Shown in pieces: positions 566 through 34,586 of a DNA stretch of 64,000 nucleotides. This DNA is from Octopus vulgaris (lineage: Eukaryota), in NCBI GenBank assembly GCA_951406725.2, contig OX597816.1, positions 165,292,001 to 165,356,000 of the forward strand, read 5' to 3'. Made by a program: the position numbers and the translations under genes. Positions within the stretch are counted from its first letter, which is position 1. Every line of letters begins with the position of its first letter. The notes under the pieces were generated by a model that ran no database searches, had not been told where the DNA came from, and worked only from the letters and a program-made list of their open reading frames with translations.

Positions 566-697
566 CTTTTGTGATATTTTTGCTTTTTAATAAAGCATAT
601 TACTCTACCTTTGATATTCAAGTACAATTTTTTTCCACCTCGTTTCACATTTATGAGCTTACTCTGGTGTGTGTATATATATATACATATATATATA

Positions 698-1497
698 TAT
701 AATTTCAACAATTGAGGGTAAAATTAATTAATTAATCAATTCCACCAAGTGTTCAGTATGCAAAGGGACCATTTAAGGCGAATTCAAATTATTACATTAT
801 ATAAAAGGGCTTAGTAAAATAAATTACTTTGCCGCATACTGAACTCATTAGAAATAGCAGCCAAAAAAAACTTTTTAAAAACTATTTCCAATACTTAAAG
901 AAAATCTCTCTCAAATAGTGCTTGTTCAATTCAACTCACGAAAGTATGAGGGTAGAAACATTAAAAAATCAAATGCAAAGGTTATTTGAGAACGTACGTT
1001 TCAAGATTAGTCAAACTCGACACTTCTATCATCAGCTCAGAACTCCCTGGTTTGGATTTGAAAACACTGAAAGCAGGAGCATACCTATTCGGTTTCCCAT
1101 CGTCTCCGAAGATCTACTCGCAACTAACAGTGCCAACGAATTCAAATATGCAAGCGAAGAATTTCTGCTCTTCCCCTTCCACCAGCGTGGGTTAAAATCA
1201 GCAAACAACATGCTTTTTTTCGGTAAAATCCGAGGCATTAAATAGAGAAAGATGAATTATAATTTCAACAATTGAGGGTAAAATTAATTAATTAATCAAT
1301 TTCACCACGTTCTCAAATAACCTTTGCATTTGATTTTTTAATGTTTCTACCCTCATACTTTCGTGAGTTGAATTGAACAAGCACTATTTGAGAGAGATTT
1401 TCTTTAAGTATTGGAAATAGTTTTTAAAAAGTTTTTTTGGCTGCTATTTCTAATGAGTTCAGTATGCGGCAAAGTAATTTATTTTACTAAGCCCTTT

Positions 1498-1505
<8 letters not shown>
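698..1505 (-). mobile_element. Penelope-like (pLTR) or retrozyme-like insert with a partial tandem repeat and an inverted arm
   Basis: Direct repeat 698-747 = 1258-1307 (period 560); inverted repeat 796-995 vs 1307-1505 (about 200 bp, near perfect); (TA)n on both sides; contains a hammerhead motif. Confidence 0.75.
987..1039 (-). ncRNA. Type I hammerhead ribozyme motif (slightly degenerate)
   Basis: Minus strand: TGAG-CTGATGA-TAGAAGTGTCGAGTTTGACTAATCTT-GAAA-C(GTAC)G-TT-CTCA; stem I UGAG/CUCA, palindromic stem III ACGUACGU, GUU triplet, U-U mismatch at the base of stem II. Confidence 0.65.
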
Positions 1506-1556
<51 letters not shown>

Positions 1557-1915
1557 GGGGGGGGTCTTTGCATTTGTCTTTAACCATCACTTGGCAGCTG
1601 GTGTTGGTTTGTTTACATCACTGATCACTGTAACTTAGTGATTCAGCAAAAGAGACCAACACTGAATAAGCTCAAGGCTTAAAAAAAATAAGCACTGGGG
1701 CGGATTTGTTTGACTAAACTATTCAAAGTAGTGACCCAGCATGGCTGCAGTCCAATGACTGAAGTAAGTAAAAGATAAAAGGCAGAGTGTGTGTGTGGTA
1801 TACATGAGAGAGAAAGAGAGAAAAAAAAAAAGGAACAATACAAAATAGTTGTCATGACACAAGGTGAGTGAGAATAAATTTTATTTATGGGGTCAGGAGT
1901 AAAAGTGAAAACTTA

Positions 1916-2053
<138 letters not shown>

Positions 2054-2317
2054 TTATAACAGGCTTTCTGACATTTACCAAAAGAGCAAATCAATATAAA
2101 TGTATGTGTGTTTATGTCCCAGTAACTTAGCGGTTTGGTAACAGAGACCAACAGAATAAGTACTAAGCTTACAAAGAATAAGTCCTGGGGTCGATTTTTT
2201 TGGCTAAAGGTGGTGCTCTAGGTGGGCGCAGTCAAATGAATGAAACCAGTAAAAGAAATCCTTAACAAACTGAAGTTTGGAACATTTCTATGGAAGGTTT
2301 TAATTTGAATCACTTTA

Positions 2318-2527
2318 CCCCTTTCGTTACCAACTTGGCTGAAACCACCTCTGGCTCTGTAGTACAAATGTCTTGGTTTCATAAGTTTTGAATTAAAATC
2401 TTCCACCAAACCTTAGTCACAATTTATGTTCCTAACACTAGCTTAATGATAACTAAGTTATTTTACTAAGTTCTTTGGTATATTTAAAATTAAATGAAAG
2501 AAATACAGAGCATCTCAAAATAAGGGT
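2318..2527 (-). mobile_element. piggyBac-type MITE, family P1, single copy
   Basis: CCCTTTCG...AAGGG-TTAA ends; internal sequence shared with the copies at 12828, 13080, 25560, 39350, 48851 and 57665. Confidence 0.7.
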
Positions 2528-3387
2528 TAAAATGGGGAATTTATATTACTGAACCAGGAGCAGTTTCATGACCAGTTGGGCTATCTAAATATTGGTTTCA
2601 AATTTTGGCACAAGACCAGGAACTTGGGGGGGGGGCACTAGCCAATTACATCAACCCCAGTGTTTAACTAGTCCTTACATAAAGCCAGAAGAAATGATGC
2701 TAAACATTTTGTCCCGCATGTTAACGATTCTGCCAACTCATGACCGTAATAACAACAGAGTCAAATTTTGGCAGAAAGACAGCAATTTCAAGAGGAGGAG
2801 ACATATTTAAATATTAAATGCTTTCTATCATCAAAACATGCCTGTCTACCTTCAAAGTATCTTTGTTGTTTTCAGCTAAAAGAATCATGTCGGGCCAAAG
2901 CAGGTTTTCATTCATTTAGTATTCTAGTAATTGATTTCTGACATGGACCCAAGGCCTCGAGAAAGGGCATAGTTGATTATGTCTCTCCACCATTTGGCTG
3001 GTATTTAATTTTATTGATTGTGTACTGATGAATAGCAGACTTGACCTTAGTAACAGCTGAACTCAGAACATCAAACGATGAAATAACAGAAAAGCTATTT
3101 TGTTTACTGCTCTACATATTCTGCCAATTACCATTAATACAGCATTTTAATATTAATCACCTTCATAGGGCAACAAAGCTGGCAAAATCATTAGTATGCC
3201 AAGCAAAATGCTTTAGTGGCATCTCACATGTCTTCACATTCTGAGAGCAAATTCCACCAAGGTCGACTTTGCCGTTCAGCCTTTCAAAGCACTGGGATCA
3301 ATGTACTCAACTTAACCAACTCCCTTGGAATTGCTGGCTTTCAACCAAAATTTTAAACCATTATCATTATTATTATTATCATTACTA

Positions 3388-3958
3388 AGTTGGTGAGCTG
3401 GCAGAAATGTTAGCATGCCGGGCGAAATGCTTCGCAGTATTTCGTCTGTCTTTACATTCTGAGTTCAACTTTGCCTTTCATCCATTCGGTGTCAATCTAA
3501 TCGAGTGGCCCAGGACTTGTGCCTAGAGTAGAAAAGATTATTATTATTATTATTACTAAGGTTGTGAGCTGGCAGAATCGTTAGCACATGAGGCAAAATG
3601 CTTAGTGGTATTTCATCTGCCATTATGTTCTGAGTTCAAATTCCACCAAGGTCGACTTTGCCTTTCATCCTTTCGGGGTCGATTAAATAAGTACTAGTTA
3701 CGCACTGGGGTTGATGTAATCGACTTAATGCGTTTTTCTGTCCTTGTTTGTCCTCTCTGTGTTTATCCCCTTGTGGGTAGTAAAGAAATAGGTATTTCAT
3801 CTGTTTTTACATTCTGAGTTCAAATTCCGCAGAGGTTGACTGTGCCTCTTATTCTTTCAGCAGTGACAAAATAAGTACCAGTTGAATACTGGGGTCAATG
3901 TAATCAACTTACCCACTCCCCTGAAGTTGCTGGCCTTGTGCCAAAATTTGAAACCAAT
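3388..3958 (+). mobile_element. Tandem cluster of tRNA-headed SINE family B
   Basis: Heads GGTGAGCTGGCAGAA (A-box-like) and GAGTTCAAATTCC (B-box-like), body GTCGACTTTGCCTTTCATCCTTTCGGGGTCGAT..AAGTACCAG (resembles the Nin/Deu SINE central domain), (ATT)n spacers. Confidence 0.75.
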
Positions 3959-4331
3959 ACTAATTACATTCATAATCTTGACAGTCTTGTTTACTTTTTT
4001 GCAGTCTGGGCTCCTGAAATAGAGCTGACTGCATGTCTGATGTATCATCTTTCTTTGTTAAATCATTAAGTTTAATGAAGTGACCCCAAGTTTGCCCTTG
4101 GCTGTCTCTACAGACAATATCTCCCACAAAGTCATAGCATTTTTCAAATACAGTTAGGGTGTGTGTGTGGTTAAGAAGGTAGCTTCTCAATCATGTGGTT
4201 TGGGGTTCAGTCCCTTGTGCAACACATTGGGCAGGTATCTCTTATCAGCCAAACAAAGTTTTATGAGAGGATTTGGTAGAGGGAAACTGAAAAAAGACTG
4301 TCATCATATATATATATATATGGATATAAGT

Positions 4332-9827: not shown

Positions 9828-10028
<201 letters not shown>

Positions 10029-12420: not shown

Positions 12421-12708
<288 letters not shown>

Positions 12709-22759: not shown

Positions 22760-22831
22760 TTGTGTGGAATATATGTTGCAGGCAGCCCATCTTACAGATG
22801 CTCCAAGGGCAGCTAATGTTTCAATAAGTAC
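22760..22831 (-). CDS. AHCYL1: AHCY-like coding exon C
   Basis: ttttttag|GTACTT...ACACAA|gtaagt; 72 nt; VLIETLAALGASVRWAACNIYSTQ. Confidence 0.96.
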
Positions 22832-30027: not shown

Positions 30028-31908
30028 AGGGGCATACCTGTCAGTGGAGTGCTCAGCCACTTGCATGTTAATTTCACGAGCAGGCTATTCAGATGATCAG
30101 ATCAACAGGAACTCACATTGGACTCCCAGTTATCAAGAAACTCCAGTCATTATCTTACAGTTGTACTGTTAACATCTTTCTACAAATAATCTCTGCTTCC
30201 TGAAGTAACAACTAGTTCCATACCATCTTCATCCTGGCTAACCTTTCATCTCTCTACGTTTAATTATGCCTGATGGTCTCATCTCCCAGGTCCCATACTA
30301 AACACTCCATCCAGGTCTTTCTGCACAAAGCAGAAATCCTATAGAAGTCCTTCTCAACCCACATTTTTTTTCCTGCATACATAGTTTTTTGGACCAGCAA
30401 ACTGTGGTCCTCTATGATTAGGATAGGTGGGGGGAGAAGCACAGACACACACAATGGGCTTCTTTCAGTTTCCATCAACCAAATCCACTCACAAGGCTCT
30501 GGTCGACTGGAGGCTATAGTAGAAGACACTTACCCAAAGTGCCACGCAGTGGGACTGAACCCAGAACCATGTGGTTGATAAGCAAACTACTTACTACACA
30601 GCCATGAATTTTATATATGCAAATATATTTGTATGTAAGAGTGTCCTTGGCTTGACACTGGTGATAGCTGTAAATGATTGTCAGTCATACAAGCATTGGC
30701 TACAGTGAAGGAATATCATTATGAGAGTATTTTTCAAAAGGAGATAATCTGAGAATAGAGTGGAGTGAACAATGTAATTGCAGAGTACTGAAAGCACAAG
30801 TGCTGCTGGGCAGGATGTGTTGCAAAGTTCACAGACAGCAGGTGGACCCATGCAGTTGTTGAGAGTGGCATCCAAGAGATTAGAAAAGGCCACTCGGAAG
30901 GCCCCCATAATGATGGGAAGACGATCAAGTTAAGCAATTTGGATGAAGATCGAAGCGAATGGCACAAACAAAACAGAAAAGGAAGTGCACTGTGATCAGC
31001 AGTGTATAACATCCGATGGTCTGGTTGATACTGTGACATAGATAAAGCAGGGGGGGGTGTGTGTGATTAAAAAGCTTGCTACCCAAGCACATGGTTTTAG
31101 ATTCAGTTCCACTGTGTGGTACCTTGGGCAAGTGTCTTCTACTATAGCCCCAGGTTAATCAAAGTCTTATTCACTTATTTGTTTCAGTCATTTGACTGTG
31201 GCCATGCTGGAACACTGCCTTTAGTCGAACAAATCGACTCCAGGACTTATTCTTTGTCAGCCTAGTACTTACTCTATCTGTCTCCCTTTGCTGAAGACAC
31301 TTGCCCAAGGTGCCATGCAGTGAGACCGAACCCAGGACCACATGGTTGGGAAGCAAGCTTCTTACCAACAGCACCTCATGTAAAATCATGTAAAATAAAT
31401 CTATACACAAATATGGATGTTGGAATGTACAACCTTTTATACCAAGAAGATGAATATTACAGAAGAATTACGTTCCTAAAACTAATTAATGATAAAAATG
31501 TAATGAAAGTATTAATTGAATAATGAAAAATGAGATTGCTTTTTTTTTTTTTATTCAATATATGCAAATATGAATTTCTTAATTACCTGCATGAATAACA
31601 TTTATTTTCAAATGCAACAAATAAGCAAAAAGAATACATTGAGTCGAAAACAACCTAAAGAGATACCTAATTAAAATTTGATGAAGATTTGACATATTTA
31701 TAGCATTATTTTGACTAAGAAGTAATTACTTTAGTTCATAACAACCTGACGGATGTGTTTACACACACACAATATCACATGCATATACACTGTATTACAC
31801 ACATATATTCATATGTTATAACTTAGTTATACAATTCTTCAGTTCCGTCTATACATTTCCCTCTCTTTTGCTCATTCGGTCACTAAACAATACTGTTTGT
31901 CTACTTAC

Positions 31909-32009
31909 TGCAGTTTGAGCTGTGATGTGTGTACAACCAATAATTTTAGCCCCTTGGAGAGGTTTATCAGCAGCAGCTCTCTTTTTAAGGGCCATTAATC
32001 CGGGCATTT
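31909..32009 (-). CDS. AHCYL1: AHCY-like coding exon B
   Basis: tttcag|AAATGCCC...ACTGCA|gtaagt; 101 nt, phase 1 start completes Glu with exon A; (E)MPGLMALKKRAAADKPLQGAKIIGCTHITAQTA. The CTHITAQTA motif is AHCYL-type. Confidence 0.96.
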
Positions 32010-34586
32010 CTGAAATAGCAAATGATAAAGAAAAAAATGCGATCAATTAAGTGAAACCAGAACAGTAATTAGAGATAAGGAGAAACAAAACAAAACTAAG
32101 ATATAATGGAATACAAGCAAAAAAAAAAATAAAATGAAAATTTAATCCTTCAAGCATTTAAACAGGCTATGTTCAGCCAAAATATACTGCTACTGTTAAT
32201 GTGGAATCCATTACAACAAGTTGGATGGTCAGGTTGTAGGCAATTAAACCGGCACCCCCACTGAGGCGGCCCGGTGAGGAAGGTTGCTAGAGACTTAGTA
32301 GGACTAAATTTAAGACCTGTGAAAATTAGGGATGAACTTAGTGTAGGCTCAACTATCATGGGCCCTCAGAAATTCTGGGTTGTTGTGTGGCATACTGGAA
32401 GACTACTGGAAATGAAGCACCTCCTAACTTATGTTAACTTTTACATTACTGTATTTATTTTGAGATGTTCTGAGTTTCTTTCAATTACTTTAAATATAAA
32501 AAAGAGTTTAGTAAAATAACTTAGTTATCATTCAACCAAATCAGACAATGGAACCTGGTGCAGCTCCAGGTTTTGCCAGTGGCTGTCAGACTGTCCAACT
32601 CATACCAGCATGTAGAGCAGAACGAACAAATGAAATGCCTGAAATACCATTGAAAATCAATTGTTTTCTATTCTTCCCATTTTGTAATTCTCTAAAATCC
32701 TATCAAGCTGTAACTTGCAATTTAATCTCAAGCATAGATGCACTCTCATACTAAATAGATAGGATGTGACAACTAGAGAGAGGGAGAGAGAGAGACATTA
32801 TATAGGGACTCCTTTTTAGGCAAGTAGACCAGAGCAACATGAAACAACGTACCTTGTACATAAGGACAAACGTCCTACATGGTTCAGGAATTGAACTTGT
32901 GAATATATGACATTGAGCCCAACGTATATACATATGTGTATGTGTGTGTATATATATATAGTTCTCCAAATTTAGTGCCAAATATACATTATTTGAGCCA
33001 CAAGTGTCAATGTCAGCCACTTGTTTAAAGAGGGCCCCATCAACCATGTAGTTTGAGTGGCAGTTATTTACAAAGCCATTAACTTAAGCAAATGAAAATT
33101 CATTTATTGCCTTCCCCAGTGGCTGTGGTTTTGTCAGAATTCACAAGTTTCAGCTCAACAGTCAAACACTTTAAATATACAGCGATTAGAGATATATGAA
33201 TAGATATGAAATGAAATGAAGTGTTGAAACAATGTCAGCAAGCTAAGGATCAAACAGACACGCTGCAACCCTTTTAAAACTAACAATATTCAGGTGTGGC
33301 TGCCTATTAACCCAGCCTATTAAAGACCTGCGAGTGGATTTGGTAGATAGTAACTAAAAAGGGTAGCTGGTCCTACACAGGCCTTCACCACTGAAAATAA
33401 TTATCTGGCTGTCAGATACTCAGATGCTGCAGCTAATGGTTAAATGAATGAATGTACTTATAAACTAGTGGCACCATCATAAAAGTGGTCTCTAATCTTC
33501 CACGATAAAATGTCCAGCTTATTGATTTTATCACAAAACCTGTAGTTTTGAGGGAATGATGGAAAGGGTGTTAGTATATAGCATCGACCCCAATATTTGA
33601 TTGGTACTTTATTTTAGCAACTCCAAGCAGGATTTGAACTCAAAATGCAATGTGAAGTGTCAGAGCAAACAATGCAAAGTAATTTTTCTGACACACAAAA
33701 GATTCTGATACCCTGTTGCTGCCAAAAGAACAAATAATTCCAAGAGAGGATTGAACTCAAAACTTCTAAGTTGATAGTCCAATACTTCAGCCATCATCAT
33801 CATCATTTAACATCTGCTTTCCATGCATTGGATGGTGTAACTGAAAACTGGTAACCTGCACCAAGTTCCAATCTGATTTTGCAAGGTTTCTATAGTTAGA
33901 TGCCCTTCCTGATGCCAACCGCTCAGAGTACAGTGCGTGCTTTAGCATGCCACTGGCACGAGTGCCATTGACTTGACACCAGCATTGGCCATAACTACGG
34001 TTTTACTTGGCTTGACAGGTCTACACAAGCATGGCATATTGCCAAACGCCTTGGTCACCTGTCACTGCCTCCGTAAGGCCCAACACTCAAACGGCGCTTT
34101 TTACGTGCCACCAGAACAGGTGCCAGTCAGATGGCACTGGCATCGGCCACGACTACGATTTCACTTGGTTCAACAGTTCTAATGGACATTTAAATAAAAC
34201 CAAATAGCTGATTTGATTACTGATGTGAGGAAGATATTGAAAGCCAGATAAAATGTCTCCTCCGTAAACAAGCACAAATAGAAAAAAAGAAAAATTCGAC
34301 AGCAATCAATCAATTTAAGGAAAAATACAATATTTCCTCAAAGCATTCTGTAAATCGGATTGTACAAAGGAAGCATTAAAATTGATTTTTTTTTTTTCGT
34401 TTTTAATAGATGCATTAAGTTAATGGGGGAAACTTCACAATGTAAAATGTGTCAATGTTTACACTGCTAGCAATAAGAGCAGGGTACACTGAAACAGTTA
34501 CAAGGCAAACAGGTTGTATTCATCTAAAAAGCTTTATAGTAAAGTGACACCAGGACACAAAATGAATGTTAATAATAGTAATAATA

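Follow-up and report, generated by a model that had tools for sequence, protein, structure and literature searches.

A young, protein-free hammerhead repeat with back-to-back tandem arms in the genome of Octopus vulgaris

Background

Animal non-LTR retrozymes, as described in PMC7229834 and 10.64898/2026.07.22.740005, are tandem units without an ORF, low in GC, each of which has a single type I hammerhead. They are dispersed as monomers to multimers, have no LTRs and no adjacent reverse transcriptase (RT) of their own, and co-occur with Penelope-like elements. RNA circles have been shown for the coral, mussel and axolotl retrozymes (PMC7229834; 10.64898/2026.07.22.740005), and a circular RNA has been hypothesised as the retrozyme template (PMC7229834). 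Penelope-like elements of the Neptune type and Poseidon PAc are described with partial-tandem and inverted arms, an AT-rich or (TA)n target, a hammerhead upstream of the tail, and a tail at one end that results from two RT starts (PMC11167929; PMC8557442; PMC3846280; PMC4209133). That the tail is often found at one end only is reported in PMC8557442 and PMC3846280; the two internal RT starts behind it were shown in vitro, and a dimeric enzyme is predicted (PMC11167929). The origin of tandem, inverted, tailed Penelope insertions, the role of the hammerhead and the movement of animal retrozymes through RNA circles are treated as open questions in these accounts (PMC8557442, PMC11167929, PMC7229834, 10.64898/2026.07.22.740005).

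Here we describe a 560-nt repeat of Octopus vulgaris, read from DNA only, which shares the features of sequence and arrangement listed above for both groups. By sequence criteria it is a new non-LTR animal retrozyme, and it appears to work like a Penelope-mobilised element. The suggestion in the initial annotation of this DNA that the unit is larger than typical finds no support, since published animal retrozyme consensus lengths run from 51 to 972 bp (10.64898/2026.07.22.740005). The family departs from the accounts of PMC7229834 and 10.64898/2026.07.22.740005 in its two-armed insertions with paired fixed ends, its (TA)n target and the genomic footprints at its predicted cut. It also differs in having a Penelope-type hammerhead, with a short stem I, an extended stem II and GUU. 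From Penelope-like elements, as far as these are described in the four papers above, it differs in having no ORF, a tail of 95 nt instead of 30-40, up to 14 whole units and a near-obligate pairing of start sites; no RT plus GIY-YIG ORF lies between pLTRs in the sampled loci. Our searches of openly accessible papers found no account of the family, of end pairing put into numbers or of chimeras formed at a cut site. Because the family is young and has hundreds of insertions, the open questions can be addressed by counting: two start sites are paired almost obligately, each insertion carries one haplotype, and there are footprints where the cut is predicted. The family also offers a 170-nt cis region and a 560-nt RNA as defined material for direct assays.

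Structure of the insertion

The window analysed here is a stretch of 64,000 nt from contig OX597816.1, and its positions 698-1508 hold a two-armed insertion within a (TA)n microsatellite (Table 1). Unit positions are window positions minus 697. The hammerhead (RNA) sense corresponds to the minus strand, both for the unit and for arm 1.

Table 1. Features of the window and of one further locus
Feature	Position	Strand	Basis or remark
Left (GT)n(TA)n microsatellite, target site	663..697	.	sequence
Arm 1: full 560-nt unit (698-1257) and 50 nt of the next (1258-1307)	698..1307	-	outer end = fixed site 1
Penelope-type "tail" of 95 nt between the fixed outer-end sites (unit 1 and 96)	698..792	-	
Conserved structured RNA region, long stem enclosing site 96	698..867	-	fold, alignment
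Type I hammerhead ribozyme, predicted	987..1039	-	core, stems, covariation
Head-to-head arm junction, unit position 50 meets 298, 1-nt overlap	1303..1311	.	
Arm 2: inverted copy, unit 298 to 96 (window 995-793)	1307..1508	+	outer end = fixed site 96
Right (TA)n microsatellite, other half of the target	1504..1543	.	
AdoHcyase-family exons	31894-32028, 22760-22831, 12526-12687, 9831-9977	-	
28S rRNA fragment joined at the cut of both arms	L301:1522-2040 (G000:C4:165626670-165627188)	sense	

The initial annotation described 698-747 as recurring exactly 560 bp later. The spacing is correct, and the two stretches are identical at 49 of 50 positions, with an exact match over the first 44 nt and one mismatch (C742 vs T1302). 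An LTR or a target duplication was rejected as the source of this repeat, which is the start of the next unit. The inverted arm begins where it had been placed, at the centre of the palindrome ACGT/ACGT and 5 nt from the predicted cut (991/990), and ends slightly beyond the proposed 1505, at 1508. It is complementary to 793-995, over 132 nt at 100% and 88 nt at 95%, with an indel in an A-run between the two blocks. As had also been proposed, the element has no credible ORF: its longest stop-to-stop frame has 108 aa, and none of the three element frames scanned matches Pfam. Because the copy has one complete hammerhead only, it would not excise a monomer itself. We read it as a dead-end daughter of a young non-autonomous retrozyme, as part of the mechanism set out below and with the same narrowly favourable weight.

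The hammerhead motif

The single minus-strand hammerhead named in the initial annotation was confirmed by an intact CUGAUGA/GAAA core and covarying stems. It has a GUU triplet, a 4-bp stem I and a palindromic stem III, and in stem II the first position is unpaired and is accompanied by a 3x3 internal loop; the predicted cut falls between unit 294 and 293. In an alignment of 15 distinct sequences from the family and its sister families, 97.9% of the stem cells are paired, compared with 30-39% in slid controls. Six of the 13 pairs have changed on both sides, in a covariation score inflated by the relatedness of the 15 sequences, two rows of which are misaligned at the 3' end. No Rfam match, hammerhead included, was found over the window at gathering thresholds, and the isolated hammerhead is not the minimum-energy fold (z 0.4-0.8). 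The circular 560-nt monomer folds better than shuffles (z -3.5), which is suggestive only. A type I hammerhead is present in each unit of the family, and one further sister family combines stem I CAUG/CAUG and stem III CGCGCG with a GUC triplet. The flanks of loci L031-L139 contain many other hammerhead-like motifs from unrelated families.

The family and its arrays

A 21-mer of the unit has 1,464 exact matches in the genome. Two sets of loci were compiled: set A, with 39 loci from the best-scoring matches of a search in which 40 of 1,457 candidates were scored, which is biased to full units, and set B, with 46 clusters formed by the first 100 of the 1,464 matches in position order, which is ascertained on unit 273-293. 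They have one locus in common and give 84 loci, of which 23 are single-armed. Inverted, 5'-truncated, head-to-head arms are present in the other 54 simple two-armed and seven complex loci, and (TA)n lies on both sides of 46 of the 54. Tandem multimers of the same 560-nt period, expected genome-wide from the initial annotation, were found, with arrays of up to 14 units per arm. Two or more consecutive hammerhead units, by which 10.64898/2026.07.22.740005 defines an active retrozyme, are absent from the window copy and occur for instance in L051 and L323. Divergence within arrays is 0.43% in the same arm and 0.55% between opposite arms. The family is a young, protein-free 560-nt hammerhead repeat organised as back-to-back tandem arms in (TA)n. 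Contigs of presumed-RNA runs cover the whole unit, mostly with variant letters; such contigs cannot show strand, ends, level or circles, and they were given no weight in either direction.

Sister families and the search for a mobilising partner

The tail and the hammerhead recur in sister families of 62-90% identity, which have no ORF; several are tandem, with measured periods of 546 and 608 nt. Loci L190-L299 belong to this superfamily of ORF-less hammerhead units, surveyed through 6,635 15-mer matches, some of which fall in unrelated repeats. These families bear on the possibility that the repeats are truncated pLTR tandems of an autonomous Penelope element. The tail, the inversion and the (TA)n target are all typical of Penelope, and the genome is rich in intact RT/GIY-YIG elements; against this, units of the family join 560 to 1 without an ORF, just as the sister families are ORF-less and in several cases tandem. 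In addition, 344 overlapping loci (approximately 2 Mb) yielded no autonomous element with the family pLTR, and every same-strand ORF-then-tail pair within 3 kb had (TA)n between its two members. The absence of an adjacent RT/GIY-YIG ORF, foreseen at the start, thus holds in the approximately 2 Mb sampled, where a pLTR of an adjacent autonomous element is largely refuted. We give the pLTR explanation hardly any weight.

A GIY-YIG scan, in which 150 of 6,136 candidates were scored, led to an intact family that encodes a 781-aa RT/GIY-YIG protein with a CxxC linker, is inserted in (TA)n and has two ends approximately 39 nt apart. By the description in PMC8557442 it is Neptune-type. It has no significant similarity to the 560-nt unit, and the unit matches near it (L147, L166, L188 and L220) proved to be separate nested insertions. 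This 781-aa family (L170-L185) is young, with many near-identical copies, a long upstream frame and a degenerate hammerhead-like motif, and in the two two-armed copies examined the tail is at one end. Another Penelope-like family, apart from the array, has a 1,015-aa open frame with RT and GIY-YIG-like motifs (L059:6042-9086).

Outer ends and the conserved region

The outer ends of the arms lie at unit position ~1 or ~96 in 63 of 68 arms in set A and in 79 of 87 in set B. Among the 54 simple two-armed loci, 49 use both sites once each (p=5e-14); of the other five, one has site 1 at both ends, four are unclassified, and there is no locus with site 96 at both. In this first set of loci, 49 of 50 classifiable insertions are therefore paired. 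Twenty further loci, picked for their long or two-armed shape and counted by hand, gave 16 paired insertions among 16 classifiable and none with the same site twice, in addition to three unclassified and two single-armed.

Each start site (1 and 96) is preceded by a hairpin and CCCU. The surrounding region, 698-867, has a local fold z of -3.4, and three of its 27 pairs show two-sided change among 13 family and sister-family sequences. In the tail, four of 83 sites carry a common polymorphism, compared with 59 of 210 at unit 343-552. This region is likely to be where the mobilising enzyme binds.

Inner junctions

The inner ends of the arms are distributed uniformly over the unit (KS p=0.43, 108 ends). 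When single arms are counted as well, four of 131 ends are no more than 5 nt from the cut (p=0.31). The initial annotation had expected inversion breakpoints clustered at the hammerhead and an inversion primed at the end that the ribozyme makes in the RNA; the junctions follow neither expectation. As the inner ends are uniform, the position of the window junction near the ribozyme is due to chance. Priming at the ribozyme-made end could be read from the window copy, whose inner end is 5 nt from the cut, and from the ~1% of arms that end there. Nevertheless, arm 2 of the window copy passes the cut and holds bases upstream of it, and the fixed, primed ends (unit 1 and 96) are the outer ones. The uniform inner ends refute priming of this kind as a general rule, and we consider it extremely improbable.

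The inner junctions bear the marks of end joining. Of 36 junctions, 15 overlap by at least 3 nt, whereas 8% did so among 400 that were simulated, and letters are inserted in 18 of 54. Alternatively, a single cDNA could fold back and copy itself, with an endonuclease resolving the far end at the other fixed site. Near-perfect fold-backs, in which both arms end within 6 nt of each other on the unit, account for six of 54 junctions vs 1.25 expected, several of them at palindromes; a haplotype shared by both arms and the doubled rRNA junction of L301 (below) would follow naturally, and self-priming has been proposed for the rotifer Penelope (PMC3846280). However, 14 of the 49 paired loci have arms that each extend beyond the other, which speaks for two separate cDNAs, and the 35 loci with a contained arm are no more than shuffles give (33.9), so simple fold-back is not the general route. 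We consider it improbable for the family as a whole, and it may apply to the palindromic minority of junctions.

Footprints at the predicted cut

The U that precedes the cut is missing from 22 of the 1,464 21-mer matches. These 22 come from 10 loci, and each of the 10 was inspected. Eight arm ends in seven loci stop exactly at C293, where uniform ends predict ~1.6 (Poisson p=2.5e-4 for ends and 1.3e-3 for loci). At a control position 2 nt inside (291), six matches in five loci were obtained from the matches alone, with one pair resembling a shared point variant; with seven loci against at most five control loci, the excess at the cut is not significant by itself. Two of the seven cut-site junctions (L315 and L316) are complex or on microhomology. 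Deletions of 2 nt in L321 and of 16 nt in L322 stop at the cut, and a GUA variant is present in L320 and L322. The excess of arm ends at the cut is likely to be real and is modest, approximately 1% of arms genome-wide. These arms are best read as cDNAs that ran off the cut 5' end and not as products of priming there.

In L301 both arms end at C293 and continue, without microhomology, into the same base of a GC-rich sequence. This sequence lies within 28S rRNA, in sense with the hammerhead strand, and is part of an 18.4-kb tandem repeat. The simplest reading of this single case is one chimeric RNA, in which a 28S fragment would have been ligated to the 5'-OH end left by the ribozyme before both arms were copied from it; a similar product could arise if the RT jumped between templates and the cDNA then folded back. 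Read as a ligated chimera, the case points to cleavage and ligation in vivo. It resembles the U6/LINE-1 chimeras formed by RtcB ligation, as described in PMC6789731, in which a fragment of cellular RNA becomes attached to retroelement RNA with a 5'-OH end before retrotransposition, and differs from them in that the 5'-OH end would here come from the element's own ribozyme. The presence of rRNA in sense with the hammerhead strand sets the polarity of the template, against the antisense-template idea put forward in PMC3846280. In L319 (1522 onward) an arm ends at the cut and continues into CAC-rich sequence, possibly a second chimera or the flank.

The template

Opposite arms of an insertion differ at 21 of 1,991 common polymorphic cells (1.1%; 43 loci) vs 30.6% between loci, and in 40 of the 43 loci no other locus fits better than the arm's own opposite. 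The 115 locus-private alleles at multiply covered sites were present in all units (21), in some (5) or in one (89), and of 88 private alleles open to this test, 19 occur in both arms. In set B, 69 of 79 arms read at least 10 nt beyond the cut, and 40 of 79 position-ordered arms cross the 560/1 unit junction; arm length does not follow age (rho 0.19, p=0.24). The reading past both points, combined with the lack of an age trend, indicates that tandemness is largely written during reverse transcription. The template is continuous at both the cut and the unit junction, and we think it likely, by a small balance of probability, that it was a circular RNA.

A linear template would involve paired Penelope-type priming on an uncut multimeric array transcript, with arrays regrown by unequal exchange and cutting as a rare side event. 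Several findings favour it. With L103, L322 and L330 left out, variants at 12 sites in seven arms reappear in units scattered along the arm, and of 78 singleton variants, 20 match alleles present in at least three other loci; both count against a pure monomer circle, which predicts uniform arms. A-to-I editing is not supported as the source of the variants at the 12 sites, of which four are A/G changes. In L322 both arms have an identical internal junction of (TA)n plus flank at equal rank and differ at five sites, which gives them an ordered internal structure, and L051 has a block of three adjacent variant units. Furthermore, the Anolis Penelope enzyme (PAc) is reported to use mostly uncut RNA in vitro (PMC11167929), and eight of nine Xenopus dimers tested gave no cleavage in an account that proposes local amplification (10.64898/2026.07.22.740005). 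Gene conversion at a later time, template switching, multimeric circles or linear multimers could each explain the scattered variants and L322.

Other observations stand against a linear template. Arrays are ~99.5% uniform while subfamilies are several percent apart, and some private alleles occupy an insertion throughout; this points to a bottleneck of one monomer. Among the 84 loci, none has an ordered pattern of polymorphisms in common with another, a comparison of low power; long arms occur at near-zero divergence between opposite arms, and the footprints at the cut are of a ligation type. On this evidence we regard the linear template as a serious competitor that is rather less than probable. 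Divergence from the nearest locus was discarded as a discriminator, since the family is too young to separate the templates. The L322 array (G000:C5:54195400-54201700) has 12 hammerhead units, two of which carry the 16-nt deletion, as well as the GUA variant and the five differences between its arms, which are fixed; it may have been rearranged locally or mixed in assembly.

Proposed mechanism

Our favoured reading, held with limited confidence but above even, is that of a non-autonomous retrozyme that is likely copied by a Penelope-like RT/GIY-YIG enzyme from a ribozyme-cut, re-ligated and probably circular RNA. The data show how the arms are built, how their ends are paired and that they have one haplotype in common; they also show junctions at random points, with microhomology or inserts, and rare arms that end at the cut. 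From there we infer cleavage activity, ligation, circularity and the identity of the enzyme. An array with at least two hammerheads would be transcribed in hammerhead sense, cut at GUU, and its ends ligated. A Penelope-type enzyme, likely a dimer, would break both strands of a (TA)n tract. Reverse transcription would then be primed by one DNA end at site 1 and by its partner at site 96, and the RNA copied would have a single haplotype. Both cDNAs would pass the unit junction, and usually the ligated cut site too, and would stop at random points, after which their ends would be joined head to head by microhomology-mediated end joining. Against this reading, the Anolis Penelope enzyme is reported to show no preference of strand between the start sites in vitro (PMC11167929). 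The proposal of the initial annotation, a non-autonomous tandem hammerhead element of the retrozyme type, is retained here: the element has Penelope insertion signatures and was copied from RNA beyond the unit junction.

More tentatively, a fuller version can be put forward, which we hold to be plausible and somewhat short of probable. The hammerhead would cut in vivo, and a host ligase would close the circle or occasionally add foreign RNA such as 28S rRNA. A dimeric Penelope enzyme would roll around one RNA from the two duplicated hairpin-CCCU sites, one subunit per DNA end, which would make insertion obligately two-ended. A long-lived ORF-less lineage, with sister families down to about 62% identity, would persist in this way and have no close autonomous parent.

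The host gene

The nearest mapped upstream exon of the AdoHcyase-family host gene is that at 9831..9977 (-), and the last exon of this gene lies approximately 20 kb to the left of the window. With minus-strand exons on both sides, the insert is intronic and the hammerhead of its main arm is sense to the host pre-mRNA, in agreement with the orientation first proposed. This orientation means little, because two-armed insertions carry both. The window copy is an ordinary intronic insertion with no sign of host function. The host gene has long introns, and a second, compact paralogue was located at G000:C1:83.80-83.81 Mb. Several common short interspersed repeats, in both orientations, lie at window 1625-3960.
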